Part shown: piece by piece, positions 5,902 through 58,794 of the stretch
How the letters are laid out: each line of letters opens with the position of its first letter
How positions within the stretch are numbered: position 1 is the stretch's first letter
Assembly: GCA_964436815.1 (NCBI GenBank)
Contig: CAYTER010000002.1
Location: forward strand, 15,401-79,400
DNA: 64,000 nucleotides
DNA from: an uncultured Syntrophomonadaceae bacterium
GTDB lineage: Bacteria; Bacillota; Dethiobacteria; DTU022
Reading direction: 5' to 3'
Translations under genes and position numbers: made by a program
Notes under the pieces: generated by a model
Databases searched by the model: none
Seen by the model: the letters and a program-made list of their open reading frames with translations, nothing else
What the model was told of the DNA's origin: nothing

Positions 5902-5905
5902 TTAG

Positions 5906-39513: not shown

Positions 39514-40152
39514 CTAACTGTCAAAAAGTTTATTTTGCAAAGCAAAAATGGCCAGTTGCGTGCGATCACGCAGGTTCAGTTTTTCCAGCAAATGCGTGAC
39601 ATGGGTTTTAACCGTCCGTTCACTGATGAACAGCTGATCGCCGATCTCCTTGTTACCCAAACCACCGGTAATCAGCTCCAGCACCTCCAGCTCGCGCGGG
39701 CTGATTTGATCTATTTTTTTCGTGCTGTTCATACTACCGCTAACTTCTTTCAGCATCCTTGCCGCCGCCAGGGGATGAAGGGTCGGTTCGCCTGCCGCCG
39801 CGCTGCGGATGGCTGCAGCAAGCTCATCTGCAGCGACATCCTTAAGCAGGTATGAAAGTGCGCCGGCTTTAATTGCCGGCAGGACCAGGTCATCTTCCGC
39901 CTTGCTGGTCAGCACTATGATTTTTGAGTGTGGACTGGCTTCCAGGCATCTTCTGGTTCCTTCCAGGCCATCGGCCCCCGGCATCAACAGATCCATCAAA
40001 ATCACATCAGGCTTTAACCGCCCGGCCATTTCAGCCGCGGATGCTCCGTCTGCAGCTTCTCCCACTACTTCAAGATCAGCTTCGGTATCAAGATAATATT
40101 TTAAACCTTCGCGAACCAGGCCATGATCATCTACCAAGAGGACTGAAATCAT
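39514..40152 (-). CDS. NarL/LuxR-family response regulator, LiaR/VraR-like
   Basis: The REC domain is VLLVDDHGLVREGL...D, with a C-terminal LuxR-type HTH (LSPRELEVLELITGGLGNKEIGDQLFISERTVKTHV). It overlaps the HK stop by 4 bp. Confidence 0.85.
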   Translation of the reverse strand: MISVLLVDDHGLVREGLKYYLDTEADLEVVGEAADGASAAEMAGRLKPDVILMDLLMPGADGLEGTRRCLEASPHSKIIVLTSKAEDDLVLPAIKAGALSYLLKDVAADELAAAIRSAAAGEPTLHPLAAARMLKEVSGSMNSTKKIDQISPRELEVLELITGGLGNKEIGDQLFISERTVKTHVTHLLEKLNLRDRTQLAIFALQNKLFDS

Positions 40153-41207
40153 TTTTTTTCACTTCCTTTATGCAAAAGCGACATCTGAATGGTTATTTTT
40201 GTTCCCCGACCGGGAGAACTTTCAAAAAAAACCCGGCCACCAATCGCGCCGGCACGCTCCCTGATTCCTGAAAGGCCAACAGCGGCAGGGTTGACCTGCA
40301 CTTTTGGATCAAAACCGGAACCGTTATCGCTAATTGACATCACCACCAGATCACCGGTCCTGGAAAGTTGAGCTTCTACAGTATCCGCATTGGCATGTTT
40401 ACTGATATTATTAAGCGCTTCCTGGGCTATCCGGAATAAACTTTCTCCCTGTTCGCCGACAAGGTTAACCTCAGGATCCAGATGATCGATAAAGTGCCAG
40501 CCCTCACGCTCAGCCAGCTTACCGATGTATTCTTTCAAAGCCTTGCCGAGACCTTCAAGATCAAGGCTGACCGGTCTGAGCTGCATGATCAGCTCCCGAA
40601 TCTGGGCATGGGCCTGACGCGCCATTAATTCAAGGTTTTCACTTTCAGCAATTAATTCTTCGATATTTTCAGGATTACTGCCGATCTTTTTCTTCAGCGC
40701 TGCCGCTCTCATCGCCAGTACAAAAAGCTGCTGATTGACCGTATCGTGCAAGTCGCGAGCCAGGCGCATCCGCTCTTCCAGGGCAGCTCCACGGCCCGCC
40801 TCTTCAGAAAGGCGCAGGTTTTTATCGGCCAAATCTTTTAAGGCTCCAACCGCTTCTTCCAACCGTACCGCCATTAGATTAAGTTGATTCTCCAGCCAGC
40901 CGACTTCATCAAAAGGACCTGTCTCAAGCCTGGCTTCATAGTCCCCGCGGGCGATCCGCCCGGCCATGCGACCCGCTTCCCAAAGCCTGAGCTTCACCGA
41001 ACGGGTTATCAGGGAACCGGCTACTGCCGCAACCAAACCAATTACAAAGCCGCAGATTATTGCTATGGTAAATGAAACCGGCTGCTCCAGGCCAAAGCTG
41101 ACAGCCAGACGGTAAGTTATCAGGGTCATAAAAGCGCTGATGACGCCGGCAGCAAGACAAATTGCCGCCAGGCGCCATTGCAGCCCAAAACTGCGCTCCG
41201 CACTCAT
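40149..41207 (-). CDS. Sensor histidine kinase, LiaS/VraS-like (HisKA_3)
   Basis: 2 TM helices plus a HAMP-like linker. The H-box is LARDLHDTVNQQLF, followed by a HATPase_c domain. Confidence 0.8.
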   Translation of the reverse strand: MSAERSFGLQWRLAAICLAAGVISAFMTLITYRLAVSFGLEQPVSFTIAIICGFVIGLVAAVAGSLITRSVKLRLWEAGRMAGRIARGDYEARLETGPFDEVGWLENQLNLMAVRLEEAVGALKDLADKNLRLSEEAGRGAALEERMRLARDLHDTVNQQLFVLAMRAAALKKKIGSNPENIEELIAESENLELMARQAHAQIRELIMQLRPVSLDLEGLGKALKEYIGKLAEREGWHFIDHLDPEVNLVGEQGESLFRIAQEALNNISKHANADTVEAQLSRTGDLVVMSISDNGSGFDPKVQVNPAAVGLSGIRERAGAIGGRVFFESSPGRGTKITIQMSLLHKGSEKK

Positions 41208-41978
41208 TTACGATTTACCCGGTAGGGCAGGCATGTAGATTATTTCCATTTCACCAAGCCCAAGTTTCGCCTCGATCTGCAGGGAAGCTTCGGCGCCCTC
41301 TACCGCGATGGACCGCTGCAATTCAAGACCTGAAATACCTGAGCGTTCTTCTTCAAAGAGATGGAGCTCGCCCAAACCGACAGAAGCTTTTATATCAAGA
41401 TTAACTCCACCCGGAACCCTGACGGTTACCTCGCCAATTCCTGTTTTTATGAAGATTTTATGCGTACCCGGTTTGATCTCCGCCGTAGTCAGATCAATGA
41501 CCACATCACCGATGCCGTGAAAAAACTCCTGATCTTCTTCTAAAACCCAGGGCGCACGTCCATGATAAAGATCGCCGATATGTCTCATCTTTGCGCATCT
41601 TTTCCATCCTTCACCTTCCTGGCAATTCTCGGACCAGAAGCGACCTCCACCCTTAACCCGGTCGCCCAGCAGAATAGAGAGACCAATGGCTACCAGGATC
41701 AGCGGCCAGCCATAGCGGGCGATATCTCCGCCGCCAATCGTGCTCAGTCCGGCATTCTTCAACATGCTGAACAGTCCTATCCCTCCAACCCACAGCCCGA
41801 GACCAAGCAAAAACCAGGAATTCCAACCGAAACTGATACTTTCCCATATAATAACCACACCCAGCAGAAGGAGAATTACCGGCCAAAAAGCGATGCCGAA
41901 ATTAAATACCCCGGTTACCTGTAATAGGATTAAAACACCAAGCACCAGCAGGATAATACCCCAGATTTGACGTTTCAT
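41208..41978 (-). CDS. LiaF/VraT-like membrane protein (DUF2154 beta-rich C-terminal domain)
   Basis: 4 N-terminal TM helices. The C-terminal region is made of repeated short beta-strand motifs (GEVTVRVPGGVNLDIKASVGLGELHLF...). It is immediately upstream of, and abutting, the HK gene. Confidence 0.6.
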   Translation of the reverse strand: MKRQIWGIILLVLGVLILLQVTGVFNFGIAFWPVILLLLGVVIIWESISFGWNSWFLLGLGLWVGGIGLFSMLKNAGLSTIGGGDIARYGWPLILVAIGLSILLGDRVKGGGRFWSENCQEGEGWKRCAKMRHIGDLYHGRAPWVLEEDQEFFHGIGDVVIDLTTAEIKPGTHKIFIKTGIGEVTVRVPGGVNLDIKASVGLGELHLFEEERSGISGLELQRSIAVEGAEASLQIEAKLGLGEMEIIYMPALPGKS

Positions 41979-42091
41979 CTCATTCTTTCCCTTCTTAAAC
42001 TAGAATTGCAGCTTAACCTGCCTTACTGCCGCTGACTAAACTCTAACCGCAGCGCAAAACTTATATAAGGTCCCCCGGATTGAATTTCCGC

Positions 42092-42107
42092 TCATACCTG
42101 GGTATGA
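42092..42107. promoter_or_regulatory. Perfect palindrome TCATACC-TG-GGTATGA in the liaF-hom divergent intergenic region. It is a candidate LiaR-type operator.
   Basis: 7-bp inverted repeat with a 2-nt spacer, ~115 bp upstream of the liaF-like start and ~140 bp upstream of hom. Confidence 0.35.
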
Positions 42108-42247
42108 TTTTAACCTGCCTTCCTAGATGATAACACTTCCTTTACTCCTGCCGGCTATTGTTCCAGTTATTGCTCAGTAAAGCTCAGCTTCCTGCTTATA
42201 CCACTTTCAGAATGCTATAATGCACTTAAGAAAGGGTGAATGCTTAA

Positions 42248-43288
42248 ATGGCTAAAGTAATTAAACTCGGCTTGATTGGTTTTGGCAACGTCGGGCAGGA
42301 ACTGGCCCGAATCCTGCTCGAGAAACAGGAAGCCTGGTTAAGGGATTATGATTTAAGTTTTATTGTTGTGGCAGTATCTACGCTCAGCAAAGGCTCCCTT
42401 TTTAATGAAACAGGAATTGATCTGAAGCGAGCGCTCACCGATCTTGGTGAAGAGGGCTTGTTTAACCGGCATAATCCGGACCTTGCTTCATTAAACCCGC
42501 TGGAACTGACCCGGCTGGATGTTGTAGATGTAGTAATCGAAATCAGCACTTTAAATATAACTAGCGGTCAGCCGGCCACTAATCACCTGGTCAGCGCCCT
42601 GCAAAACGGCAAGGATATCATTACTGCCAACAAAGGCCCGATTGCTTTTCATTATCATGAACTAAAAACCCTGGCCTCCTCGCTAAACAAAAGTCTGTTT
42701 TTTGAAGGCATAGTGATGGACGGCACCCCGGTTTTCAATCTGATCCGTGAAAACCTGATGGGCTGTACCGTTAAAAGTTTTAGAGGAATACTCAACAGCA
42801 CCACCAATTATATCCTGACCGAGATGGCCGCCGGAATAAAATATGAACAAGCCCTCAGTAAAGCCAGGAACCTTGGTTTTGTTGAATCTGACCCTACAAT
42901 GGATATCGACGGCTGGGATGCTGCCGCAAAAGTAGCCGCCCTGATGAATGTGCTCTTTGATGCCCGGATTACCCCGCAGCAGGTTGAGCGGACAGGTATT
43001 GCCAATATCAGGGAAGAAGATCTCAGAAAGACCGAGAGCGAGGGACAAACCATCAGGCTAATCTGCGAGGGGCACAGAGATGGAAACACGTTGCGGGGTA
43101 AAGTTTCCCCTCTTGCCATTTCCCTGCACAACTCACTGGCCTTAATCAGGGGAACATCTTCAGCGTTAACTTTAGATACCGACCTGGCCGGAGAGATTAC
43201 GATCATCAGTCATAACCCGCAGATCAGACAAACCGCTTACGCCCTGATCAGCGATCTTTTCTCGCTGGTCAGATTAAATTCACTTTAG
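42248..43288 (+). CDS. hom: Homoserine dehydrogenase-like NAD(P)-dependent dehydrogenase (no ACT domain)
   Basis: The N-terminal Rossmann region is KLGLIGFGNVGQELARIL. The central ITANKGPIA...EGIVMDGTPVF is typical of the homoserine dehydrogenase catalytic domain. 346 aa. Confidence 0.6.
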   Translation: MAKVIKLGLIGFGNVGQELARILLEKQEAWLRDYDLSFIVVAVSTLSKGSLFNETGIDLKRALTDLGEEGLFNRHNPDLASLNPLELTRLDVVDVVIEISTLNITSGQPATNHLVSALQNGKDIITANKGPIAFHYHELKTLASSLNKSLFFEGIVMDGTPVFNLIRENLMGCTVKSFRGILNSTTNYILTEMAAGIKYEQALSKARNLGFVESDPTMDIDGWDAAAKVAALMNVLFDARITPQQVERTGIANIREEDLRKTESEGQTIRLICEGHRDGNTLRGKVSPLAISLHNSLALIRGTSSALTLDTDLAGEITIISHNPQIRQTAYALISDLFSLVRLNSL

Positions 43289-43292
43289 CAGC

Positions 43293-44327
43293 TTAATAAT
43301 TACTGTTGTCATAAAGCATTTTACTGCCTATCACAACTCGAACAATATCGGGATCTAACTGCGTCCCGGTAACACTTTGCAGTTCTTCTTCCACTTCCGG
43401 GATGGATCTGGATGCAGCATAAGGCCTCTCCCACAGCATGGCGTCTATCGCATCGGCAACAGCAATTATCCTGGCGCCCAGGGGAATATTTTTCCCTACT
43501 ATTCCTTCCGGATAGCCCAGCCCGTCATACCGTTCATGATGATAGAGAATCAGCGGTATGATCTCCTTTAAAAAAGTGGCGGGCGATAAAATATCTGCTC
43601 CGATCACAGAATGTTTTTTAACCATCTCATATTCACCATCATTAAGGCTACTGCTCTTCCTGAGAATGCTTTCTTCGACACCAATTTTCCCGATGTCATG
43701 CAGCGTAGCTGCCTGCCTGATCGGTTCCAACTGATCAAGGGGTATATTCATATTTAAACCGATCTGCTCCACCAGGCTGGCAACTCTCTCCTGGTGCCCT
43801 TTTGTGTATGAGTCCTTGGCATCGACCGCCGCCACCAGGGATTCAATGGTTTCCCTGTAGTGGCTCTGGATGCTGCTGTACGTTATTTTAATCTCTTCCT
43901 CGAGCGCAACCTTGGCCAGCTTAAGTTCATCAATTTTTTTACTTGCTTCCCGTGTTTCAAAACGTTTATGCAGGCCTTTTTTCACGACTTCCCTGACCGA
44001 AGTAATTTCAAAAGGTTTGATCAGATAATCAATGGCGCCAAGTCGAAGGGCTTCCGTTGCTGTATCGATGGAAGCATAGGCGGTAATCATGATTACCTGG
44101 GTGTCAGGAGCCTGTTCCCTGATCACTTTCAACAAATCAATACCGTTCATTTCCGGCATCCGGATATCTAAAATAATCAGATCGTATTCATCTTTTTGTA
44201 AAATTTCAAGCGCCTGCTTGCCGCTGGCGGCAGTTTGAACGGAATAATCATCTCTTAAAATCATTCTCAGAGATTCTCTGGGTCCAAGTTCATCATCCAC
44301 GACAAGAATCAAAGGCTTTTCAGACAT
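43293..44327 (-). CDS. Response regulator with HD-GYP output domain (RpfG-like c-di-GMP phosphodiesterase)
   Basis: The REC domain is ILVVDDELGPRESL...DLIILDIRMP. The HD-GYP motifs are HDIGKIGV and HHERYDGLGYP. Confidence 0.85.
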   Translation of the reverse strand: MSEKPLILVVDDELGPRESLRMILRDDYSVQTAASGKQALEILQKDEYDLIILDIRMPEMNGIDLLKVIREQAPDTQVIMITAYASIDTATEALRLGAIDYLIKPFEITSVREVVKKGLHKRFETREASKKIDELKLAKVALEEEIKITYSSIQSHYRETIESLVAAVDAKDSYTKGHQERVASLVEQIGLNMNIPLDQLEPIRQAATLHDIGKIGVEESILRKSSSLNDGEYEMVKKHSVIGADILSPATFLKEIIPLILYHHERYDGLGYPEGIVGKNIPLGARIIAVADAIDAMLWERPYAASRSIPEVEEELQSVTGTQLDPDIVRVVIGSKMLYDNSNY

Positions 44328-44355
44328 TATAGTTGTATACCCCTTTACAATTTGC

Positions 44356-46359
44356 TCATTTAGCGACTAAAGGCAAACTGATTCCGAACTTGAGCGGACT
44401 ACCGTTTGCCTGAACGGCCTGAAGCGTCCCCCCGTGGTCTTCAACTATTTTTCTGCTAACCGGTACACCAATCGATATGGCATTATCAGGGCTAACCTCA
44501 AGGGGGTTAAAAATCTTTTCCGGATCATCCAGATCTATTTTAGTACAGTTATCAGTAATCATAATATGCAGTTGCTCAGGCTCATATTTAGCATCCGGTA
44601 TGGCGGTAACGATGGTGATTTCTTTATCTTTATCCGGAAATCCTTCATAAAGAAAACCGATTAAATAGGCAATTGCCCTGGCCATGCTGAGCCGGTCGAC
44701 TTTTACTGCGGTTTCCCCCGGGCAGATACTTTTTCTGACCAAACCGTTAAGATTACCGCCCTGTTCTTTTAAAAGAGCGATAGATTGCTCAATAATTTCG
44801 TTAATATCAACAATTTCGTACTGATAGTTCAAGGGAGTAGAGAAGGCGATCAGCTGATCGATCAGTTCGTTTAATCTCTTTACTTCCTGCTTTACGGTTT
44901 GCGAAAACAAGGTTCTAAATTCCTGGTCTTCGTATTTTTCCGGCAGCAGCTGGGCATAAGTCTGGATCGCAACCATCGGATTTTTAATCTCATGGGTCAG
45001 TTGACTGACAAAACGGTTCAATACATTAATCTGCTCTACTTTGTTACGTTCCGCTTCTGCAATCTTCCTTGCTGTAATATCGTCAATGATCATTACACTG
45101 CCGAGCACATCATCATTTTGATTAACCATTCTGTAGGTGCTTATTTCAAGAGGCAGCCGGTCCTCTGTCAACTCGAGGAATTCTTTATGATATGCTTTTC
45201 CGGATAACATTGTTTCATAGAGCATATCTCCAAGGGGGCTAATCAGTGATCTCAAATCTGCATTGATCACCTTCGCCGGATCATGTTTTAATATTTCACC
45301 GGCTCGCTGGTTAAAGGTGGTTATTTTTTCAGCGCAATCAATCGCCACAACCCCGCTGTCCATGATCTGTAAAATACTTTCAATATATATTTTTTGGTTA
45401 ACTAGCCGTTCATGCAGATCGATGTCATCCAAGGCAACAGCAATATTCCCGCAAACGGTATAAAGCAGTTCCAACTCTCGATCGTAAAAAGGAGAGCCGG
45501 CAACTTTCGAACCGAGACAGAGAACTCCATTTAACTTGCCCTGGGCGATCAGTGGCACACAAACCTGGGCATGAAGCAGTTTCATTTCCTGTAGAATTTC
45601 AGCCCTGCGTTCAGGAGAGATGTATTCGCAGAGTTCAGATTTCTGCAAAATCTGCCCTTCCGCAGCCAACCAGGCCACTAGACCCTCAGATTCCTTTAGC
45701 CGCAATAATAAATTAATATCAGGATCCAAGCCATGTTGTGCGGCGATGACAAATCCATTACCAGCGTTACTTTTTAACAGGACAGCAATTTTGCCAACCG
45801 GAACAAGCTCTTTAACCGCATAAATAAAGAGATTTATGAACTTCTCCCGATTAAACTGATTACTGACTGTTCTGGAAAAGTCACTTAAAACCCTCGCCCA
45901 GGGACGTGTCGTCAGATCATATTCCCTTTGCGGCACATTATTTTCTGGAAGGGCTTTTCTAACGTCCGCGGTAGGTTCGTCTTTGCTGCTTATCGATTTT
46001 TCCCAGGCGCGGTCAAGAATTTTTTTCAACTGCCATTGCTCGAAGGGCATCGGCAAATAATCATATAACAAATCAGCCAGCTGAAGCGCTTTTTTCTGAT
46101 CTTTTCCCAAACCGATAAAAATCAAACCCGGTTTATGGGCTGCTTCGTCCTTCAGCCAACTGTGAACATCCCGGCAATCCGTATCCAGCAACACTACGCC
46201 GTGATCAAGATCAGTTGTAATCGCACCATTAAAATGATCATCGCTGTTGCCGATTAAAAAATAGCTATCCGGGATAAGATTTTTGATCTCTTCGAGTAAA
46301 TTCTGATCTTCGGTAACCATGAGCACAACTTTCACCCGAGCACCCACTCTCCAGGCCAT
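44356..46359 (-). CDS. Cytoplasmic sensor histidine kinase (degenerate REC-like N-terminus, GAF, PAS, HisKA, HATPase)
   Basis: 667 aa. The H-box is LTHEIKNPMVAIQTYAQLLPEKYEDQEFR, followed by a C-terminal HATPase_c. It is a paralog of the adjacent membrane HK. Confidence 0.8.
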   Translation of the reverse strand: MAWRVGARVKVVLMVTEDQNLLEEIKNLIPDSYFLIGNSDDHFNGAITTDLDHGVVLLDTDCRDVHSWLKDEAAHKPGLIFIGLGKDQKKALQLADLLYDYLPMPFEQWQLKKILDRAWEKSISSKDEPTADVRKALPENNVPQREYDLTTRPWARVLSDFSRTVSNQFNREKFINLFIYAVKELVPVGKIAVLLKSNAGNGFVIAAQHGLDPDINLLLRLKESEGLVAWLAAEGQILQKSELCEYISPERRAEILQEMKLLHAQVCVPLIAQGKLNGVLCLGSKVAGSPFYDRELELLYTVCGNIAVALDDIDLHERLVNQKIYIESILQIMDSGVVAIDCAEKITTFNQRAGEILKHDPAKVINADLRSLISPLGDMLYETMLSGKAYHKEFLELTEDRLPLEISTYRMVNQNDDVLGSVMIIDDITARKIAEAERNKVEQINVLNRFVSQLTHEIKNPMVAIQTYAQLLPEKYEDQEFRTLFSQTVKQEVKRLNELIDQLIAFSTPLNYQYEIVDINEIIEQSIALLKEQGGNLNGLVRKSICPGETAVKVDRLSMARAIAYLIGFLYEGFPDKDKEITIVTAIPDAKYEPEQLHIMITDNCTKIDLDDPEKIFNPLEVSPDNAISIGVPVSRKIVEDHGGTLQAVQANGSPLKFGISLPLVAK

Positions 46360-46368
46360 ATCAATGAA

Positions 46369-48858
46369 TCAGGATAAGGGAAGCACTACTTCAAACCTTG
46401 AACCCGCCCCTTCAATACTGGAAAAATCAATTTTACCGCCATGACCGGCAATGATTTTATGGCTGATGCTTAGTCCGATTCCCACTCCATCTGCTTTGCT
46501 GGTCACAAAAGGATCAAAAATCTTTTCTTTTACAACCTCGGATATCCCGACGCCCGAGTCTTCAATAAATACTGTCAGATTGCCGGCGGCAGTTCTTATT
46601 CCTGCATTCAGAATACCACCTTCAGGCATAGCATGAACTGCATTAACGCATATATTCAGCAGGGCTTGCTTAATTAGGGCCCGGTCAACATCAATAAGCT
46701 TGTCCTCACCCTGAAAATCAAGATTGACCATTATTCCATTGGCATCAAGTTGCGGCGACAAGAGCGCAATAACTTCACCGATTAGATCTTTAATATTTAC
46801 TTTCTCCAATGTGAGGACCGGTTCCTTTACAAAATTTAAAAGTTCTCCGACTAAATCGTTTATCCTGATTATTTCCTGGCTGACGACACTGGAAAATCTG
46901 TTCCGGAAATCGTGATCCTCATATTTCTCGGGCAACAAATCAGCAAATGTTTTTATTGAAACCAGTGGATTCTTTATTTCATGAGCAATGCCGGCTGCTA
47001 CTTCACCGAGTGATACCAGGCGCTCCGACTTGCTCTTTTCCTGCTCCAGTTCTTTAATTCTGGTTACGTTGCTAAACACAATAATTACTTCGCGGGCTCG
47101 GCTTTCCGGAGATTCGACGATTGAAGTATTGCAGGTCAGGTAGCTGGTATTCTTTCCAACGGTATGTTTGATTTCGACCTGCTTGATACCTGCCCCTTTA
47201 TTTATTGTTTTCCAAAATAAATCGTAGATATCCGCCCCTAAAGCAGGCGTAATTTTTTGACCGATCACCTTTTCGGCATTAAGTCCAAAGATATATTCAG
47301 CCTCGTTATTAAATACGGTAATAATTTTAGCTTCATTAACGGCGATCAGCCCGTTGCCCATATTGAGCAAAATATTTTCCTGGTATTGCTTTATCGATAA
47401 GATCTCTTCATATAAGCGGGCATTGACAAGTGAAGAGGTAACCTGTGAAGAGAGGGATGATATCAGATTTATATCTTCCCGGTAAAACGGTTCCCCTGAG
47501 TTTTTCAGGCCGAGAAATAATATACCCTCGATTTCATCTTCGATCATCAGGGGTATGGCCATTTCCATTTCCAAAACTTTCATTTTTTCTGAAACCAACG
47601 CTTCGTCAAGCTGGCTGATCCCTTTACTGAAATCACTCTGTAATACAATTCTTTTATGGGTATCTAAATAATCGGTTATCAATTTTATAACTGCTAAATC
47701 GGGAACGATTCTCTCATAATCTGCCATGCTTCCGCTAAATCCCGGCAGTTCATACTGCCGGTCATTTCCCTTCAGGCAGTAAAGGCCATACTCAAGATTC
47801 ATATACTTGACCAAATCGTTGAGAATCGTTTCAAATATCAACTCTTTATCAAGAATATGCCTTAGATTGTTAACACTGTTGGCCAGCAAGCTGTGATAAT
47901 CGACAAAGTTTTTATAGAATAGCTTTCTAATCAGGTAATCAATCCGTCTGCTGATCGTTGGATACCCGATTACCACGAGAAAAACCACTATCGCGATTAA
48001 TAACTCTGAATCTGCAGTCTCAAATCCTGTATTCTCGTTAAAAAGCAGCCTGATCAGGACGACCGCAAAACAGGCTAAAATAATTGCCGCTACCACAGTA
48101 GTTAAATTTTTACGCAGTGCAAAGCGGATATCCATAAAACGGTACTTAACGATTGAATAGCTTACTGCTCCAAGCATGATCAGGCTGAAAGCCGGCCCCA
48201 TGGAACGAATATCGATACCAAAAATATAGATAACGCCCATAAACGGCAGCAGAACATTAACGATGATAATCATTGAAGCCGTAGCAAGAGTTCCGTAATA
48301 AAAATAACTGAGCTGAGCCCTGATTTTTGAGCGGGCAATTTTCATCTTTTTGTAAAGCTGACTGAAAGCAAAAGCAGTCATCAGCAGCAGGAAAAGGATC
48401 CACGGATAGGTTAGAAAACCATAAATGATCAGGTTCTCCTGATAAGGTTCCATGATCCCGGTTATAAAATAAGGTGTAAAAGATAAAACTGCAAATAATA
48501 TACTAAAAGCCATGGTGATTAAGGCAACTTTGTTTTTAAAAAGCTTTTCCTGGAAAAGCGACAGCGTTATAGCCAGTACATGCCACGGCGCAATTATTCC
48601 CAACGCATGGCTAACCCGAATCCAAAATAAAGTTAAATTGTAATCGTCCTGGATTGTTATAAACAGGATAGCCAGACCCCACATGGCGACAACTACAGAA
48701 AAGCTGAGCATCAGGAGATTTGAAACAGCCCTGGGATTGTTGACCGCCACGAATATGCCAAGGGTCAGGTGTGCCAGAATCGTAAGAATGAGCATTATAA
48801 CCGTGGCATCAAGCAACTGGCTTATACCCACACCATTATCGATTATTATAACTTGCAA
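46369..48858 (-). CDS. Membrane-bound sensor histidine kinase (about 8 TM helices, GAF, PAS, HisKA, HATPase)
   Basis: 829 aa. The N-terminal ~270 aa are polytopic. The H-box is IAHEIKNPLVSIKTFADLLPEKYEDHDFR, and the HATPase_c G-boxes are present. Confidence 0.8.
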   Translation of the reverse strand: MQVIIIDNGVGISQLLDATVIMLILTILAHLTLGIFVAVNNPRAVSNLLMLSFSVVVAMWGLAILFITIQDDYNLTLFWIRVSHALGIIAPWHVLAITLSLFQEKLFKNKVALITMAFSILFAVLSFTPYFITGIMEPYQENLIIYGFLTYPWILFLLLMTAFAFSQLYKKMKIARSKIRAQLSYFYYGTLATASMIIIVNVLLPFMGVIYIFGIDIRSMGPAFSLIMLGAVSYSIVKYRFMDIRFALRKNLTTVVAAIILACFAVVLIRLLFNENTGFETADSELLIAIVVFLVVIGYPTISRRIDYLIRKLFYKNFVDYHSLLANSVNNLRHILDKELIFETILNDLVKYMNLEYGLYCLKGNDRQYELPGFSGSMADYERIVPDLAVIKLITDYLDTHKRIVLQSDFSKGISQLDEALVSEKMKVLEMEMAIPLMIEDEIEGILFLGLKNSGEPFYREDINLISSLSSQVTSSLVNARLYEEILSIKQYQENILLNMGNGLIAVNEAKIITVFNNEAEYIFGLNAEKVIGQKITPALGADIYDLFWKTINKGAGIKQVEIKHTVGKNTSYLTCNTSIVESPESRAREVIIVFSNVTRIKELEQEKSKSERLVSLGEVAAGIAHEIKNPLVSIKTFADLLPEKYEDHDFRNRFSSVVSQEIIRINDLVGELLNFVKEPVLTLEKVNIKDLIGEVIALLSPQLDANGIMVNLDFQGEDKLIDVDRALIKQALLNICVNAVHAMPEGGILNAGIRTAAGNLTVFIEDSGVGISEVVKEKIFDPFVTSKADGVGIGLSISHKIIAGHGGKIDFSSIEGAGSRFEVVLPLS

Positions 48859-50105
48859 CCTCCATTATTCCTGCCGGCATTGAAATCCGGCTTCGAGATA
48901 ATCATAGAGTTCGTCGTTCCACCAAATCCACGGATATTAACCATCGCCCTTCTCACTCTCGCTACCCTGCCCCGGGCGGGAACATAGTCGAGGTCACAAC
49001 CTTCATCGCAATTTTCCAGGTTTACAGTCGGGGTGATGTAATTATTGTCAATGCTTAAAGCAGCAGAAATCAGCTGCAGTGGACCGGCCGCAGCCCCCGG
49101 GTTACCAATCATCGATTTAATCGAACTAACCGGTATACAATAAGCCCTGTCCTGAAAGACTTCTTTGATCGCTTCCGTTTCCACCTGATCAATGACCGGG
49201 TGGCCCGGGGCACATGCAGATATATAGTCTATATCATTCGGTCTGAACCCGGATTGGTTGAACGCATTATTCATTGCATCAACGAAGGAATTTTTCATCC
49301 AGGCCGGAGACATTACCGTGGAAGTTCCCCCTCCTGAATACAAAGCATAAATTTTTGCTTTTCTTTTAAGTGCCATGTTCTTTTCTTCCATTACTATTAC
49401 ACCGGCTCCTTCAGATACTATTCCACTTTCCCTGTCACGATCAAAAGGACGGCTTCCCTTTTCCGGCAGATCATTGAAGCCGGAAGGCACCAGACCAATT
49501 ACACTATAGCCGGTAAGGTAAAAGGGCGAAAGCGGTATATCAACGCCTCCGGCGATGACAATGTCAGCTTCCCCACGGGCAATTAAATCTGCAGCAGACT
49601 GGATACTTGTAGCTCCAGCCGTACAGGCTGTCGATACGGTCACAACATTGGTAAATATTTTGAAGATATGCGCTATCGCCGAAGCTGATGCATGCGGCGC
49701 TGCAGAGGCAAGGGCATCAGGCCTGACGGACCCGTCAGCAGAAAAAGCCGCGAACTCTCTTTGATAAACTTCCATGTCAGGGCTGCTGGCGCCCATAAAT
49801 ACCGCTCCGCTGCGTTTTGCGATCTCATCGGCTGAAAGACCGGCATCCTCGAGCGCCAGGAGTGCCGCAATTACTGAAAAACGGCAGGCTTTTGAATCCG
49901 GCAGCCAATCCGGTAAACCCGCCTTCCTTTCCTCTAACCATTCGGGTAAAATGTCGCCGGCAATATGGCAGGGACAGTCGGATTCAACCAAATCATTAAT
50001 TTGTCTGATCCCGGTTTTCCCCGAAGAGATGGCTTCCCAGAAAGATTTTTTCCCCACTCCGTTTGGCGCTACCGGCCCAAGCCCGGTTATTGCTACTTCA
50101 TACAT
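48846..50105 (-). CDS. Beta-ketoacyl-ACP synthase I/II-fold condensing enzyme (KAS-like), stand-alone and outside any fab cluster
   Basis: 419 aa thiolase-fold KAS. The active-site Cys is in VSTACTAGATSI, and a His is in CAPGHPV. The second His of the GHxxGAAG motif is replaced by Asn (SMIGNPGAAAG). Its 3' end overlaps the HK start by 13 bp. Confidence 0.8.
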   Translation of the reverse strand: MYEVAITGLGPVAPNGVGKKSFWEAISSGKTGIRQINDLVESDCPCHIAGDILPEWLEERKAGLPDWLPDSKACRFSVIAALLALEDAGLSADEIAKRSGAVFMGASSPDMEVYQREFAAFSADGSVRPDALASAAPHASASAIAHIFKIFTNVVTVSTACTAGATSIQSAADLIARGEADIVIAGGVDIPLSPFYLTGYSVIGLVPSGFNDLPEKGSRPFDRDRESGIVSEGAGVIVMEEKNMALKRKAKIYALYSGGGTSTVMSPAWMKNSFVDAMNNAFNQSGFRPNDIDYISACAPGHPVIDQVETEAIKEVFQDRAYCIPVSSIKSMIGNPGAAAGPLQLISAALSIDNNYITPTVNLENCDEGCDLDYVPARGRVARVRRAMVNIRGFGGTTNSMIISKPDFNAGRNNGGCKL

Positions 50106-50139
50106 GTTCTTTCCTCCAGGCAGAGAAGAGTGTAAAAAA

Positions 50140-50856
50140 TCAATTCTTGATTACGGCCAGAAACCAAATTTGCCCTCCGTAAATCAAATCAAAATCACTG
50201 ATCATAAAACCGCTTTCTGTCAAGGCTGCTTGTATTTGATCTTTATCAAAGAAGAAATACTTTTTATTCTTAATAATAATCAGGTTCACCAGGGAGAAGA
50301 CGATTACCGGCACTACATACAAGGTCAACTGTCCGATCAGGAATAATAACCAGCTTTTTGGCTTTTTCTGTTTTAAAACGGCAATATGTTCATGGATTAC
50401 CGGTAACAGTTTTGGTTCCTGGTAGGGTGTGGCTAAAATCAATTTACCGTTCTTTTTTAGCACCCGATTAAGCTCATTGAGCAAATCAGCCGGCTTATTC
50501 AGGATATAGAGGACATTAATGCAGACCAGGCCATCAAAAACCTCATGGTCATATTTTAACGGTCTGTTAAGATTACTGCTCTCAAGAACAACTCTTTTTT
50601 CATATCCGGCCAGCTTTTTCTCTGCCCGTTTAAGCATGGCGGATGAAAAATCGATTCCTGTAACCATCGCCCCTTCACTTCTGCGGCATATTTCTGCAAT
50701 CAAGTTGCCGGTGCCACATCCGGCATCAAGGTAAACTCCATCTTCGCCTGGATCCAATGCTGTAACTACTTTATCGATCATCTGTCGGTAGGGGATAAAA
50801 CGTTCTAGGATGAGATCATAAACGCAAGCATATATCTGCCAGATTAGCTTCTCCAC
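50140..50856 (-). CDS. Class I SAM-dependent methyltransferase with a hydrophobic C-terminal membrane segment
   Basis: SAM motif I is YLDAGCGTGNL, and motif post-I is the acidic ITGIDFS. A C-terminal TM helix is WLLFLIGQLTLYVVPVIVFSLVNLIII. Confidence 0.8.
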   Translation of the reverse strand: MEKLIWQIYACVYDLILERFIPYRQMIDKVVTALDPGEDGVYLDAGCGTGNLIAEICRRSEGAMVTGIDFSSAMLKRAEKKLAGYEKRVVLESSNLNRPLKYDHEVFDGLVCINVLYILNKPADLLNELNRVLKKNGKLILATPYQEPKLLPVIHEHIAVLKQKKPKSWLLFLIGQLTLYVVPVIVFSLVNLIIIKNKKYFFFDKDQIQAALTESGFMISDFDLIYGGQIWFLAVIKN

Positions 50857-51112
50857 TTTTTCACCTGCTTGCAGAAATCAATTACCGGTCTTTTTCGATG
50901 CCTCTATTTTTTCCAAAGGTAAATAATTAAACACTGGCATCAGGTTTTCCTTTAAGTATAAGCGTATTTGAAAAATTTTTTCATAATTAAAGCTATTATA
51001 CACTTTTTTAACCTGCGCAGAATTTTACCATACTTAAATCCGAATTATGATAGAATCAGTGGTGAGTTTATACAGAGTTTATTAATCAAGGCACACTAAC
51101 AGGAGAATATTC

Positions 51113-53230
51113 ATGGATAAAATCTTCTACCCGGATTCTATTGTCATCATCGGCCTTTCATCCAAGCCAACCAATATACCGCGGCTGACCCTCGAAAACC
51201 TGCTGCGTTGGGGGTATAGAGGCAGAATTTTCGGAGTTAATGCCCGCAGCGAGGACCCCCATGTAGATGGGATCAGGATGTTTAAAAATGTAGAAGATTT
51301 GCCGGAAATTCCTGATCTGGCATACTGCATGATCCCCGCCCCATTAATTCCGGAGATGGTCGATCGCTGTGGCAAGTATGGAATCAGGCGCATGGCCATC
51401 CCTTCAGGCGGCTTCTCTGAATTCAGCGAAGAGGGCCAGGCTCTTGCCAGTCAGCTCTTAAATACAGCGCGCAAATATGGCATCCGCTTTGTGGGACCAA
51501 ACAGCGTTACGGTTGCCAATACTGACAATGGGCTGTGCCTGCCTTTTGTCGCTTTACACAAAGCTCCAAAAGGAGAAATGTCGATCGTCTCCCAGAGCGG
51601 TGGAGTAGCTTTAAGTATGCTTAACTACCTGGCGGATGAAAAGATCGGATTGGCTAAGTTTGCCAGCATCGGCAACAAGCTTGATCTCGATGAAGTTGAT
51701 TTTCTTGAGTACTTGGGCAAAGATCAGCAAACCAGGGTTATTTGCCTGTACCTTGAAAGTATAAACCGTGGCCGCAAATTAATAGAAACGGCAAAAAAAA
51801 TTAATAAACCGATCGTTGTTTACAAATCAAATACCACCAGCGCCGGGAAAAGAGCAGCGATGAGCCATACCGCCGCTTTGAGCAGCGATGAAGCGATCAT
51901 TGATTCGGCCTTCGAGGAAGCCGGAATTATACGCATCCGGGATTTTTTAGAATTTATCGAGGTGACGAAAGCATTTCAATTGCCGCCGATGAGAGGCCGG
52001 CGCATTATGGTCATGAGCCCTGCCGGCGGATTTGCCGTAATGGGTGCTGATTTATGTGAAAAAGCCGGTTTCGAATTTGCCGACATGGGCAAAGATTTTT
52101 ACGAGAGCCTTAAACAGTTCAGCAACGCCGGGGTGATCAATTTTTCAAACCCGCTGGACATGGGCGATATCTACGACCCGAAACTGACAGCCCATGTCAT
52201 TTATTCTGTCATGCACTCCGACCAGGTTGATGGATCAATTTATATCAGCCAGAGACCGCAGATGCCCCAGGGTGAAAACGTTTTTCAGAAAATGTTTTTG
52301 GCCGATATCTCCATGGAAGCATGGGGCTCGATTCTTTCTGCCGGAAAACCGCTGGGTATCTGCCTTTTCGGCCCATCACGGGTAATCCAGCAGGCCAAAC
52401 GCTATGTTGAGTTTCCTATTTTTAACAGCCCGGAAGAGATGATCAAAGCCCTGGCTTCCCAGATGAAATTTTACGAGCGGCGCAAACAGCTCAAAGAGCA
52501 AAAAGATCTTGTGCCGCCAGCAGGGATAGATCAGGAAGCTGCCTGTCACTGGATGCTTGATAAACAGGGCGAGTATGGTGAGGAGGCCTTTGCGCTTCTT
52601 GAAGCTTACGGCATAAAAACTGCAGCCTCACGAACCGCGGTTGATGCGGAAGAGGCTGTCGTTCATGCCCGGGAGTTGGGCTATCCGGTTGTGATGAAGG
52701 TTGTATCGCCCGATGCCCTGCACAAATCAGACGCCGGCGGGGTTCTTTTAGGTCTTAAATCTGACCAGCAGGTTGCAGAGGGCTTTTTAAGAATAAAGAA
52801 AAACCTGCATAAATTTAATAAAAACGCTCTTTTCGGCGGTGTGAGAATTCAAAAGATGGCCGGTCCGGGCTTTGACCTTTTTGTCGGCGGAAAACAGGAT
52901 CCTTCATTCGGTCCGGTAGTTTTCTTCGGTTTAGGGGGTATATACATTGAAGCTTTCAAAGATGTGGCCAACCTGCTCTGTCCGGCCCGTCCGGAAATAA
53001 TTGAAGAGAAAATGGCTACGCTAAAATCAGCAACTTTACTGTCCGGACTCCGTGGAGAACCGGCTGGCGATCAGAGCGCCTTTATTGATCTGGTGGTGCG
53101 CACCGCCAGGATCCTGGCTGATTTCCCTGGCATCAAGGAACTAGACATTAACCCCGTCAGGGTTTTTACGGAGGGGGAAGGTGTGATCGCCCTTGATACC
53201 AGGTTACGGATCAGCCTGACCGATCACTGA
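51113..53230 (+). CDS. ADP-forming (NDP-forming) acyl-CoA synthetase, fused alpha/beta (CoA-binding, CoA-ligase and ATP-grasp domains)
   Basis: 705 aa. The N-terminal CoA-binding region is IVIIGLS...GRIFGVN, with succinyl-CoA-synthetase-like and C-terminal ATP-grasp domains. GGAGAA RBS upstream. Confidence 0.8.
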   Translation: MDKIFYPDSIVIIGLSSKPTNIPRLTLENLLRWGYRGRIFGVNARSEDPHVDGIRMFKNVEDLPEIPDLAYCMIPAPLIPEMVDRCGKYGIRRMAIPSGGFSEFSEEGQALASQLLNTARKYGIRFVGPNSVTVANTDNGLCLPFVALHKAPKGEMSIVSQSGGVALSMLNYLADEKIGLAKFASIGNKLDLDEVDFLEYLGKDQQTRVICLYLESINRGRKLIETAKKINKPIVVYKSNTTSAGKRAAMSHTAALSSDEAIIDSAFEEAGIIRIRDFLEFIEVTKAFQLPPMRGRRIMVMSPAGGFAVMGADLCEKAGFEFADMGKDFYESLKQFSNAGVINFSNPLDMGDIYDPKLTAHVIYSVMHSDQVDGSIYISQRPQMPQGENVFQKMFLADISMEAWGSILSAGKPLGICLFGPSRVIQQAKRYVEFPIFNSPEEMIKALASQMKFYERRKQLKEQKDLVPPAGIDQEAACHWMLDKQGEYGEEAFALLEAYGIKTAASRTAVDAEEAVVHARELGYPVVMKVVSPDALHKSDAGGVLLGLKSDQQVAEGFLRIKKNLHKFNKNALFGGVRIQKMAGPGFDLFVGGKQDPSFGPVVFFGLGGIYIEAFKDVANLLCPARPEIIEEKMATLKSATLLSGLRGEPAGDQSAFIDLVVRTARILADFPGIKELDINPVRVFTEGEGVIALDTRLRISLTDH

Positions 53231-54211: not shown

Positions 54212-55477
54212 TTAACGTCCGGCAATGGTCCGTACTGCGCTGACCAGGCGATCAATTTCTTCTTGAGTGTTATAAGGAGAAAGGCCTACCCTGACCAGTC
54301 CGCCGGCCTGCATCAAACCCAGGATTTCAACCAGCCGGATCGCATAAAAATGGCCATCCCAGACAAAAAGGCCCTGTTCACCCAGTTCTGCTGCAACCTT
54401 TTCCGCATGAACTCCTTCGATGGTAAAAGATACCGTGGAAGTGCGCGGGCTACCGGCAGGCGGGCCGTAAACCCTAACCCCTTTGATTTCATTCAGGGAG
54501 CTGATTAATTTGTCGGCAAGCGGTTGTTCATATAGCTCCAGCGCCTTCATTCCGGCGATGATGTTACAGCGGCGTCCGGACCAGTCTGGATTTAACTTGC
54601 CGATTTCAGCAGGATTTCCAAATCTTTTACCCAGGTCGGCAATAAACTCAACGGCTTCGCCGGCTCCGGCTATACCTTCATGGTTCAGGGTTCCGGTCTC
54701 AATGCGATAGGGGATCTGTTCTGACTGAACCCTTAAGCGATAGGTCGGCAGATTTTCAAAATGTTTGCGTTTTCCATAAAATACCCCGATGTGGGGGCCA
54801 AAAAATTTATAGGCTGAGCAGATTAAAAAATCTGTATCAAGCTCCCGGACATCGACCGGGCCATGCAGGGCGTAATGAACCGCATCGACAAGCGTCAGGG
54901 CTCCAACCTGATGGGCCGCCTGAATCATTTGACGGACATCGCTGACTGTGCCGATACCATTTGAGGCATAACTGAACGCTGCTATCAGGGTTTTTTCCGA
55001 TAGCTTCTGCTTAAAATCGTCGAGATCAAGGGTGCAGCTTTCAGGATCGAACCGCGCTTCCTTGATCGTAAAACCTTGTTCGGCCAGCGCCAGCCAGGGT
55101 CCGCGGTTAGCTTCATGATCAATTTCAGTAATCAGGATCTCGTTGCGGCCGACCGGTTTACGGCCGAGAGCTAACGCAAGCTGGTAATTCATCGTGGTCA
55201 TATTCTGCCCGAAAGCCACTTCATCGGCATCACAACCAAGAAAATCGGCTAGCGCCTGGCGCGCGCCGCTGATCACCTGATCGCTGTTTCTGCTGGTTAA
55301 AAATCCACCACCGGCATTGGCATTGCAGCGTATCAGGTAATCGACCATAGCATCAATCACCCGCTGTGGAACCTGTGTTCCGCCGGGTCCGTCAAAAAAA
55401 GCTGCCTGCTGGCCATTGACCTCCAGATCAAGCGCCGGGAATTGTTTTCTGACATAATCTACATCGTAGTTCATCAA
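54212..55477 (-). CDS. Class V PLP-dependent enzyme (cysteine desulfurase/selenocysteine lyase/C-S lyase-like)
   Basis: 421 aa fold-type I aminotransferase. The PLP Lys is in SAYKFFGPHIG, and the conserved DAVH is present. Confidence 0.75.
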   Translation of the reverse strand: MMNYDVDYVRKQFPALDLEVNGQQAAFFDGPGGTQVPQRVIDAMVDYLIRCNANAGGGFLTSRNSDQVISGARQALADFLGCDADEVAFGQNMTTMNYQLALALGRKPVGRNEILITEIDHEANRGPWLALAEQGFTIKEARFDPESCTLDLDDFKQKLSEKTLIAAFSYASNGIGTVSDVRQMIQAAHQVGALTLVDAVHYALHGPVDVRELDTDFLICSAYKFFGPHIGVFYGKRKHFENLPTYRLRVQSEQIPYRIETGTLNHEGIAGAGEAVEFIADLGKRFGNPAEIGKLNPDWSGRRCNIIAGMKALELYEQPLADKLISSLNEIKGVRVYGPPAGSPRTSTVSFTIEGVHAEKVAAELGEQGLFVWDGHFYAIRLVEILGLMQAGGLVRVGLSPYNTQEEIDRLVSAVRTIAGR

Positions 55478-56910: not shown

Positions 56911-56924
56911 CTGAACGGTTCCTT

Positions 56925-58355: not shown

Positions 58356-58383
58356 CTATTCATCTCCCCTCATTTAGAAGCTT

Positions 58384-58794
58384 TTATTTTAAGGCTATTA
58401 CTTCAATTTCAACCGGAAATTTACCAGGCAGTTCTTTAACCGCAACGCAGGAGCGCGCCGGTTCATTGGCTGTGAAATAAGTCTTGTAAACTTCGTTCAT
58501 TGCGCTAAAATCTCCCATATCGGTGAGAAATACCGTTACCTTGATCACTTTATCAAGGCTGCTTCCCGCCGAATCAAGAATTAGTTTGATGTTTTCCAGA
58601 ACCCGCGCTGTAGCTTCCTTAATGCTGGAACCGGCCGGTTCGCCGCTCTGCGGATCGACCGGAACCGTTCCCGAGAGAAACAGCATCCCTCCAGCCTCAA
58701 CTGCGTGTGAATAAGGCCCTGCTTTAAATAATCCTTCAATGTTAATACATTTCTTCTCCATATTCCTTCGCGACCTCCTGATTATAGATGCCAT
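58384..58794 (-). CDS. RidA (YjgF/TdcF) family reactive enamine/imine deaminase
   Basis: 136 aa chorismate-mutase-like fold with typical RidA motifs (GPYSHAV, VKVTVFLTDM). Confidence 0.85.
   Translation of the reverse strand: MASIIRRSRRNMEKKCINIEGLFKAGPYSHAVEAGGMLFLSGTVPVDPQSGEPAGSSIKEATARVLENIKLILDSAGSSLDKVIKVTVFLTDMGDFSAMNEVYKTYFTANEPARSCVAVKELPGKFPVEIEVIALK

Follow-up and report, generated by a model that had tools for sequence, protein, structure and literature searches.

A gene cassette linking a FabF-fold protein without catalytic histidines to a membrane histidine kinase: a candidate lipid-signalling circuit present in several bacterial phyla

A five-gene block and its conserved core

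We analysed a 64,000-nucleotide (nt) stretch of contig CAYTER010000002.1 from an uncultured Syntrophomonadaceae bacterium, referred to below as the window, and focused on five minus-strand open reading frames (ORFs) at 43293–50856. In order, they encode an S-adenosylmethionine (SAM)-dependent methyltransferase (MT), a FabF-fold protein resembling β-ketoacyl-acyl carrier protein synthases (KAS), a membrane histidine kinase (HK1), a second kinase-like protein (HK2) and a response regulator (RR). Coordinates given for this DNA are positions in the window. The initial annotation, made from the sequence alone, had described five packed minus-strand genes and proposed that they serve to make and sense a lipid-derived signal. 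Both the ORF coordinates and the junctions agree with that description: MT and KAS are separated by 34 nt, KAS and HK1 overlap by 13 nt, and gaps of 9 nt and 28 nt separate HK1 from HK2 and HK2 from RR, respectively. A Pfam search supports the domain calls for all five proteins, and public gene calls for six contigs from this species give the identical five-gene arrangement. Chance is a poor explanation for such an order, which recurs in 29 complete and four truncated non-redundant loci from several phyla.

The neighbourhoods that we compared were taken at KAS homologues of 71%, 57%, 49%, 50%, 44% and 39% identity, together with 80 further loci of GTDB species representatives, whose genes were annotated through BLAST searches with the domains of the window; motifs were tabulated for 120 KAS homologues and 90 KAS encoded in the loci. 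The gene order KAS-HK1-HK2-receiver protein was kept, with differing flanks, from 71% down to 39% KAS identity. Within Bacillota, the cassette occurs in Dethiobacter, Dethiobacteria, Syntrophomonadaceae and others, and a relative of the cultured species Dethiobacter alkaliphilus carries it (locus L015). Outside Bacillota, it is found in Verrucomicrobiota (Chthoniobacterales, ‘Spartobacteria’), Omnitrophota, Lentisphaerae, Armatimonadota (Armatimonadia) and Thermodesulfobacteriota (Syntrophaceae), and Nitrospirota have a related form. The spread thus covers at least seven phyla, including the related form of Nitrospirota, with Gram-positive anaerobes among the carriers.

HK1 lies within 300 nt of the KAS stop codon in the 29 non-redundant complete loci, and four more contigs, which end early, still show the HK1 N-terminus behind KAS. 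Among KAS genes of the histidine-less type described below that have enough downstream sequence, HK1 is the next gene in 33 of 33; the only unlinked ones, in L022 and L031, both lie less than 300 nt from a contig end. The initial annotation would have been refuted if homologues of the KAS and MT pair always occurred elsewhere without sensor kinases; what accompanies the KAS homologues is, in all 33 cases, the same kinases. The KAS-HK1 junction is often an ATGA-type overlap of 4 nt, and HK1 and HK2 usually overlap by 4 nt as well. Distance matrices of KAS, HK1 and HK2 correlate with r values of 0.92–0.94 (Mantel p ≤ 0.001, 27 loci), which fits inheritance as a unit, with a contribution from shared species phylogeny. 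The conserved unit is KAS-HK1-HK2-receiver protein. Full-text literature searches directed at the gene order of the cassette did not turn up any account of it, in agreement with the earlier statement that the combination was undescribed in Firmicutes; the cassette is, however, not Firmicutes-specific.

Features of the encoded proteins

The KAS gene (48846–50105, minus strand), the first gene of the core cassette, encodes 419 amino acids (aa) that match the N- and C-terminal ketoacyl-synt domains of Pfam. Its best model is fabF (TIGR03150), with 281.5 bits in comparison with an equivalog cut-off of 493.75, and the other KAS models also score below their cut-offs. The closest solved structures are those of FabF, matched over the full length with an E-value of about 1e-62 and with roughly 33–35% identity, as counted from the alignment. 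FabF possesses a Cys-His-His catalytic triad (C163, H303 and H340 in E. coli numbering). In a residue-level alignment to the solved FabF structures, the nucleophile is kept as Cys161 (nt 49623–49625) within the sequence VSTACTAG. The position of His303 (NAHGTST) is taken by Cys298 (SACAPGH; nt 49212–49214), with loss of the HGTST motif, and that of His340 (KSMTGH) by Asn335 (KSMIGNP; nt 49101–49103).

The second histidine position is occupied by another residue in 120 of the 120 best database homologues, which nearly all have Asn (Ser in three, Thr in one). At the His303 position, the closest 30 of these homologues have C or S, many others have H, the verrucomicrobial ones have Y and a few have N or T. 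Cys161, Lys330, Asp306 and Glu309 are invariant across the family alignment, and the position of the FabF gatekeeper Phe varies (F, L, V, I, M, Y). When the KAS encoded in the loci were placed in a single alignment, all kinase-linked ones had Asn or Gln at the His340 position and lacked HGTST, whereas all unlinked ones, which are true FabF and actinobacterial KS-alpha proteins (KS, ketosynthase) of type II polyketide synthases (PKSs), had Cys-His-His. Two Cys-less KS proteins resembling chain length factors (CLFs), in L067 and L086, also lack the second His and are of a different type.

KAS I and KAS II depend on the two histidines to decarboxylate malonyl and to condense, whereas the Cys accepts an acyl group without them. 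Because both are replaced in the window protein, classical elongating condensation by it is doubtful. From the residues present, formation of an acyl-enzyme on Cys161 is plausible, FabF-type elongation is unlikely, and Cys-dependent acyl transfer or non-decarboxylative condensation would be more consistent. In spite of the earlier label ‘condensing enzyme’, a normal condensing role is not to be assumed with Cys and Asn in place of His303 and His340. We also considered, and rejected, a type II PKS pair of KS-alpha and KS-beta (CLF): the cassette has a single KAS gene and no acyl carrier protein (ACP), and the actinobacterial KS/CLF pairs retrieved by the same search are Cys-His-His proteins without kinase linkage. 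Source annotations name members of the KAS family 3-oxoacyl-ACP synthase II, beta-ketoacyl-ACP synthase II or beta-ketoacyl-ACP synthase family protein, and cassette proteins generally carry only generic names there. In a profile search with the KAS alignment against a library of 1.84 billion representatives, the summed scores of multi-KS proteins swamped single-domain proteins; the top 150 matches were giant multi-KS polyketide synthases, and no usable family count was obtained.

HK1 (46369–48858, minus strand; 829 aa) has about eight hydrophobic segments, joined by very short loops, within aa 1–305, followed by GAF (339–475), PAS (495–599), HisKA (617–678) and HATPase (725–828) domains. Pfam and the hydrophobic segments together confirm the earlier call of a GAF-PAS histidine kinase with about eight transmembrane (TM) helices. 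Every HK1 orthologue has the H, N, G1, F and G2 boxes intact. HK1 orthologues reach the Pfam model PF16927 (HisKA_7TM), for which the window protein lies below threshold, and a Pfam search with the isolated membrane region of the window protein gave no significant match. HisKA_7TM is a sensor domain without a known ligand (PMC5847659). The annotated TTG start of HK1 directly abuts GGAGG with no spacer (48832–48858). In-frame alternatives exist at codon 10 (GTG), codon 15 (TTG) and codon 22 (ATG), and given these KAS and HK1 may be separated by a short gap rather than overlap by 13 nt.

HK2 (44356–46359, minus strand) is a cytoplasmic protein of 667 aa with a receiver-fold region (aa 9–124), GAF (180–311), PAS (326–430) and HisKA (447–507) domains and a degenerate ATP-binding domain at about 560–664. 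It is paralogous to HK1, with kinase cores that are 33–34% identical; a database search retrieved about 100 clusters of HK2 orthologues, and the next-best matches were HK1-type proteins of 27–30% identity. The H-box His is kept in all orthologues. The N, G1 and G2 boxes are gone from the forms of Bacillota (including the window), Omnitrophota, Armatimonadia and Syntrophaceae and are intact in the verrucomicrobial forms; in the window, Pfam HATPase_c scores 24.5 bits against a cut-off of 26.4. Pfam found no match in the first 125 residues. A structure prediction from an alignment of orthologue N-termini folds this region as a (βα)5 receiver, with a predicted local distance difference test score (pLDDT) of 86, and the model superimposes on FixJ, DctD and other receivers with TM-scores of 0.78–0.85 and a root-mean-square deviation of about 2 Å. 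Asp59, at the phospho-acceptor position, is nearly invariant, and the receiver Thr/Ser and Lys positions are not conserved. The description as a soluble GAF-PAS histidine kinase therefore holds for the GAF-PAS-HisKA part but had missed the hidden receiver fold and the loss of the N, G1 and G2 boxes from the ATP-binding domain. In this lineage, HK2 is probably not an ATP-dependent kinase but a phosphorelay or modulator protein. A relay-like reading is suggested because a receiver-like domain, a histidine of the dimerization and histidine phosphotransfer (DHp) domain and a dead ATP site occur together; HK2 may be a fused relay of the Spo0F-Spo0B type, and a role as a phosphatase or modulator is equally possible.

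RR (43293–44327, minus strand; 344 aa) consists of a receiver (REC) domain at aa 7–115 and an HD-GYP domain at aa 165–328, with 111.9 bits for Response_reg and 109.7 bits for HD_5. The HD motif at aa 210 and HHERYDGLGYP at aa 263 are intact, in accordance with the earlier identification as a REC-HD-GYP regulator. A NosR-family model of cyclic di-GMP (c-di-GMP) phosphodiesterases gives 229 bits, below its cut-off of 400. The protein has the REC plus HD-GYP architecture of RpfG-like regulators and is probably a c-di-GMP phosphodiesterase. The fourth gene of the core cassette is a REC-HD-GYP gene in 14 loci (Bacillota, Nitrospirota and Syntrophaceae), encodes a REC-sigma54 activator in six, and a divergent REC-HisKA-HATPase protein in another 14, mainly of Verrucomicrobiota; GGDEF/HD-GYP proteins flank the cassette in L010, L096 and L034. 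Sensory modules typically show this pattern, in which the input is conserved and the outputs can be exchanged.

MT (50140–50856, minus strand; 238 aa) is a class I SAM-dependent enzyme matching Pfam Methyltransf_11/25/31 and is accessory to the cassette. Residues 150–195 (nt 50272–50409, minus strand) form a hydrophobic helical insertion in an AlphaFold2 model (pLDDT 90), a conserved hydrophobic helical pair placed before the last two Rossmann strands. The protein had been described as membrane-anchored; however, because the elements that flank the insertion belong to one Rossmann sheet, a membrane-dipping hairpin is more likely than a transmembrane anchor. No NCBIfam model reached its cut-off for MT. 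A fold search gave the natural-product and lipid MTs RebM, AtmM, TleD, MitM, Coq5 and phosphatidylethanolamine (PE) N-methyltransferase as nearest folds; its matches were all generic class I small-molecule MTs, from which the substrate class is not readable. The family is small, with 24 proteins at E ≤ 1e-10. MT is located upstream of KAS only in part of Bacillota (L007, L008, L009, L013, L014, L018, L095 and L096); L010, L011, L016 and L017 do not have it, nor does any Gram-negative locus, and about half of the Bacillota cassettes lack it. MT, which according to the initial annotation could make the signal together with KAS, is not part of the core.

The same MT family occurs in a second type of cassette. 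A metagenome scan based on MT used a generic SAM-motif pattern, with which most of the 80 loci retrieved contained unrelated MTs, and only matches with the hydrophobic insertion were kept. Metagenomic loci of the second type encode, often with 4-nt overlaps and in some cases behind an OmpR-type RR, a member of the MT family, a FeeM/LuxI-like GNAT acyltransferase and a HisKA_7TM(-GAF) kinase. In L093 (7210–11371), an MT copy of 40% identity, insertion included, is fused to a FeeM/Acetyltransf_5 N-acyl amino acid synthase domain; the fusion overlaps a HisKA_7TM-GAF kinase gene by 4 nt, with an OmpR-type regulator upstream, and the membrane and GAF region of the kinase aligns to HK1 over 488 residues (25% identity, E 4e-32). 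L105 (1573–4677) and L106 (6502–9471) have separate genes for MT and a FeeM/Autoind_synth-type protein, followed by the kinase (HisKA_7TM in L105), and L099 (6108–10459) and L107 (823–5029) have MT, a GNAT-related T_hemolysin-like gene and a membrane GAF kinase. The acyltransferases of these loci match the model of the PEP-CTERM/exosortase system-associated acyltransferase, TIGR03694, below its threshold. Two cassettes with different acyl-handling enzymes and one type of membrane kinase thus make use of the same MT family, and the occurrence of this family beside 7TM kinases in other loci agrees with the sensing theme of the initial annotation. The FeeM/LuxI-type MT cassette is apparently undescribed.

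Other neighbours are specific to lineages. A gene for a B12-binding radical-SAM protein overlaps the KAS start by 4 nt in L020 (Omnitrophota), and such genes are adjacent to the cassette in L044, L034 (two copies) and L052. In L012 and L034, the cassette has as its neighbour a FadL/TodX outer-membrane channel, a type that serves hydrophobic compounds. In Nitrospirota, small sets resembling type II fatty-acid or polyketide synthases are coupled by overlaps of 4–7 nt to the kinase trio: L033 (9983–17993) has a KS-ACP-thioester reductase set ahead of the orthologous HK1-HK2-REC-HD-GYP genes, and L086 (7489–19272) has a ketoreductase, a CLF-like KS, a FabA-like dehydratase, a canonical KS, a NAD_binding_4 thioester reductase and an FAD amine-oxidase-like protein, then HK1-HK2-REC-HD-GYP. 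Taken together, the accessory genes (acyltransferase, B12-radical-SAM protein, ACP plus thioester reductase, ketoreductase, dehydratase and KS, FadL) would fit a small hydrophobic product. As a separate observation, the cassette in L009 (a metagenome-assembled genome of Dethiobacter alkaliphilus) adjoins, at 3039–6725, a class II lanthipeptide synthetase (DUF4135 plus LANC_like, 1076 aa) and a Nif11-type precursor gene, and a gene with a Lant_dehydr_N-like region is conserved upstream of the cassette in verrucomicrobial loci, together with a ParA-like gene.

In the window, the block lies between a gene for homoserine dehydrogenase, convergent with it, and a divergent gene for an ADP-forming acyl-CoA synthetase, and the remainder is ordinary chromosomal content. 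Both MT and KAS have Shine-Dalgarno-like sequences ahead of their starts. Upstream of MT, the intergenic region of 256 nt contains an extended −10-like element, TGTATAAT (50995–51002, minus strand), which was read from the sequence and is a candidate for the operon promoter. A consensus scan of the region for promoters and terminators gave counts not above those of shuffled controls, so that the operon boundaries are drawn from gene spacing only. An Rfam scan of 42000–52000 matched no riboswitch or other RNA family and hence gave no sign of feedback through a c-di-GMP or SAM riboswitch. A tblastn search across the 64 kb found no second KAS and no ACP gene, and the annotated genes of the ±10-kb flanks include no fab or pls genes; KAS lies outside a fatty-acid-synthesis setting, as had been noted initially.

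The acyl-CoA synthetase (51113–53230, plus strand; 705 aa; CoA_binding_2, Succ_CoA_lig and ATP-grasp_5) is divergent from MT and syntenic in close relatives; in L008 (4863–6984) the same gene is broken into four short ORFs, as a pseudogene or through an assembly error. Being a CoA ligase next to acyl-handling genes, the enzyme could have a bearing on the cassette, but it is not conserved in more distant loci. A complete envelope-stress module of the LiaF-LiaS-LiaR type (a LiaF-like protein, a HisKA_3 kinase and a GerE-type regulator; 39514–41978, minus strand) lies 1.3 kb downstream of the cassette, past the convergent homoserine dehydrogenase gene. This adjacency is kept only in the closest relatives (L001–L003, L008) and is absent in the more distant loci inspected. 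Further away, at about 54212–59000 on the minus strand (1345–5894 in L001), a conserved cluster upstream of a NIF3-like gene encodes a RidA-like protein, an HpaB-type flavin monooxygenase, a FAD-binding protein and a class V aminotransferase, and is syntenic in L007 and L008. At 13479–16157 (minus strand), two adjacent same-frame ORFs of 348 and 539 aa (Molybdopterin and Molydop_binding) are divided only by a TGA codon at 15111–15113, in the context HCARL*HAPTVAGL. The pair looks like one selenocysteine-containing alpha subunit of the formate dehydrogenase type, of 893 aa, and is adjoined by a NuoF-like FMN/Fe-S subunit at 16139–17992.

Relation to known systems

By sequence, the nearest named system is PrsK/PrsR, the two-component system that regulates PEP-CTERM/exosortase genes. 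Both systems have a multi-TM plus GAF sensor kinase and an enzyme that uses acyl-ACP encoded beside it. Against PrsK (TIGR02916, cut-off 300), HK1 of the window scores 115.5 bits and that of L044 162.9 bits, the latter aligning almost end to end (model positions 140–679). The sigma54 RRs of Gram-negative cassettes score 368.7–457.6 bits against PrsR (TIGR02915, cut-off 502.6), the highest value being that of the L044 partner. The enzyme of the cassette is, however, a FabF-derived protein rather than a GNAT, a second kinase-like protein is always present, and the output in the window is HD-GYP, not sigma54. Among the annotated flank genes there is no exosortase (EpsH/XrtA); PEP-CTERM proteins were not specifically searched. 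We rejected membership in the Prs system, since no protein reaches a Prs cut-off and the window RR is REC-HD-GYP, and we regard the comparison as placing the cassette as a sister system and not a member. The stimulus of PrsK ‘remains obscure’ (Haft 2006, PMC1569441), and the passage of PMC7293339 that cites Craig, Cherry and Brady (2011, J Bacteriol 193:5707) gives N-acyl amino acid synthase genes as reported beside PEP-CTERM/exosortase genes. The cassettes extend this pattern to a second, FabF-derived enzyme, to Gram-positive anaerobes and to c-di-GMP outputs.

The initial annotation had likened the locus to rpf of Xanthomonas and phc of Ralstonia. In the Rpf system, which responds to diffusible signal factor (DSF), the REC-HD-GYP regulator RpfG lowers c-di-GMP. 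The likeness, drawn from architecture rather than from sequence comparison, is that a fatty-acid cue, a membrane kinase and a REC-HD-GYP protein are encoded together, and the RR has the architecture of RpfG. In contrast, KAS has the FabF fold and RpfF is a crotonase, HK1 is a 7TM-GAF-PAS kinase and RpfC a hybrid with histidine phosphotransfer (HPt) and REC domains, and HK2 and MT are extra. The annotated genes of the cassette and its ±10-kb flanks include no protein of the crotonase/enoyl-CoA hydratase (ECH) domain type, and Pfam places no C-terminal REC or HPt domain in HK1 or HK2. Membership in the Rpf system was rejected for lack of an RpfF-type crotonase and an RpfC-type hybrid kinase: the logic is alike, as had been proposed, but the defining proteins are absent. 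In the Phc system, PhcB makes the methyl ester of 3-hydroxypalmitic or 3-hydroxymyristic acid (3-OH-PAME or 3-OH-MAME), which is sensed by PhcS/PhcR. By function, the two systems are alike in that a SAM-dependent MT, which in the cassettes would make a volatile or hydrophobic methylated acyl signal, is encoded with a sensor kinase; in the cassettes, however, MT is accessory and matches generic class I models only, and the conserved partner is the KS-like protein.

A precedent for stand-alone KS proteins with non-canonical chemistry, non-decarboxylative or head-to-head, as signal synthases comes from the photopyrones (PpyS/PluR) and dialkylresorcinols (DarB/PauR) of Photorhabdus. These differ in that the KS is of the FabH type and the signals are sensed by LuxR solos, not histidine kinases. 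HK2 resembles Spo0F/Spo0B in combining a receiver fold, a DHp histidine and, like Spo0B, an ATP-binding domain without nucleotide boxes; it differs in the fusion of these domains with GAF and PAS and in a receiver without the conserved Lys and Thr. With FabF itself, KAS shares full-length homology, the fold and the Cys and Lys of the active site, whereas it scores below the cut-off, lacks His303 and His340 and any fab context, and is always linked to kinases.

A possible lipid circuit and its alternatives

All functional statements made here are drawn from sequence and gene context, comparative evidence throughout. We propose that KAS would take an acyl chain from acyl-ACP or acyl-CoA and turn it into a hydrophobic product by acyl transfer or non-decarboxylative condensation, which in this lineage the membrane-associated MT would then methylate. 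The product would partition into the membrane and be sensed by the 7TM-GAF-PAS kinase HK1. HK1 would autophosphorylate, and the phosphoryl group would reach the REC-HD-GYP protein directly or via HK2. HK2 would behave like Spo0F and Spo0B fused into one relay protein, or else like a phosphatase or modulator that has a GAF-PAS input of its own; the phosphorylated RR would hydrolyse c-di-GMP. We put at about 0.5 the probability that the first gene or genes yield a lipid-type ligand, that HK1 detects this ligand within the membrane and that the HD-GYP phosphodiesterase is thereby controlled. Compared with the module for signal synthesis and sensing that was first suggested, the functional linkage and the lipid theme have been strengthened, while the chemistry of KAS, the status of MT, the nature of HK2 and the taxonomic range have been corrected.

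Several observations weigh against this proposal. The window KAS has lost both histidines, and among the KAS encoded in the loci the His303 position holds H, Y, C, S or W and the gatekeeper Phe varies, which would be unusual for a single conserved chemistry. Neither an ACP nor an acyl-activating enzyme nor an exporter belongs to the core. Many cassettes lack MT, and methylation is hence not essential to the circuit. The Nitrospirota clusters use different, canonical KS enzymes, and their inputs may be analogous rather than homologous. The correlation of distances among KAS, HK1 and HK2 could mirror shared species phylogeny, and the tight translational coupling of KAS and HK1 fits a stoichiometric protein complex at least equally well.

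In the main alternative, KAS makes nothing. As a receptor subunit of FabF descent, it would bind acyl-ACP or acyl-CoA, or be transiently acylated by them at Cys161, dock on HK1, HK2 or both and so report the acyl-thioester pool or fatty-acid synthesis to the relay and to c-di-GMP turnover, with MT and the other neighbours as lineage-specific add-ons. The loss or variability of the decarboxylation residues beside an invariant acyl-accepting Cys speaks for such a pseudoenzyme sensor, and so do the His mutants of KAS I/II, which keep transacylation and lose condensation. It is further favoured by the strict 1:1 occurrence of KAS with HK1 and HK2, the overlaps of 4–13 nt, which suggest co-translation and a complex, the core without ACP or exporter, and the dispensability of MT in many lineages. 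We nevertheless consider it somewhat unlikely. It leaves unexplained why an MT with a lipid-type insertion, B12-radical-SAM proteins, FadL and biosynthetic neighbours recur, and why the MT family and FeeM/LuxI-type synthases stand beside 7TM kinases; the large membrane sensor domain of HK1 would be left without a ligand; and Asn at the His340 position is catalytically competent elsewhere in the thiolase superfamily, in Cys-His-Asn enzymes.

Weaker, and improbable in our estimation, is a role in membrane-lipid remodelling, in which KAS and MT would modify bulk lipids, for instance through synthesis or methylation of an unusual acyl chain, the 7TM kinase would sense the state of the membrane and co-expression would serve homeostasis. 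The nearest folds of MT do include PE N-methyltransferase and Coq5, HK1 is almost devoid of extramembrane loops, as are intramembrane-sensing kinases, and the LiaFSR envelope-stress module is only 1.3 kb away. Yet that module does not stay with the cassette beyond close relatives, the outputs are HD-GYP or varied regulators and not a dedicated transcription factor for lipid genes, a stand-alone His-less KS is an unlikely bulk lipid enzyme, and the partnership of MT with FeeM/LuxI-like proteins points to secondary lipids. That KAS is a housekeeping FabF placed by chance beside a two-component system is scarcely credible. Although FabF provides its best named model and best PDB matches, the identity was excluded by the score far below the cut-off, the replacement of both histidines, the absence of fab or acp genes nearby and an adjacency across phyla that is specific to the His-less, kinase-linked clade, and the view of the initial annotation that KAS is no housekeeping FabF is upheld on all of these grounds.

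Returning to the proposal of a lipid ligand, the two cassettes allow a wider and more tentative suggestion, which we hold with somewhat less confidence: PrsK-like (HisKA_7TM-GAF) kinases would be receptors for lipids from an adjacent acyl-handling enzyme, a His-less FabF derivative in one case and a FeeM/LuxI-like protein in the sister cassette. As a further variant, the FabF derivative may itself be the receptor, a covalent sensor of acyl-thioesters.

To our knowledge, circuits that join a lipid signal to a sensor kinase are known only from a few proteobacterial models (DSF, Phc and Cqs/Lqs). A lipid cue with two-component sensing is a known kind of system; here the parts are new and the distribution is wide. 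The cassette would add a lipid circuit built from different parts, in which FabF is repurposed, the kinase is of the PrsK-like 7TM-GAF type, a receiver-pseudokinase protein serves as relay, and HD-GYP, sigma54 activator or REC-kinase are interchangeable as outputs. It is also a concrete candidate for the stimulus of HisKA_7TM/PrsK-type kinases, which was left open in PMC1569441. The KAS-like clade is cleanly separable (Cys kept, His340 replaced by Asn or Gln) and would represent either a new chemistry or none, which matters to enzymologists and to annotation. If the proposal is correct, the cassette would define a new, phylum-spanning class of lipid signal circuit, mostly in uncultured anaerobes and soil bacteria, in which a repurposed fatty-acid synthase subunit is combined with a kinase/pseudokinase phosphorelay.

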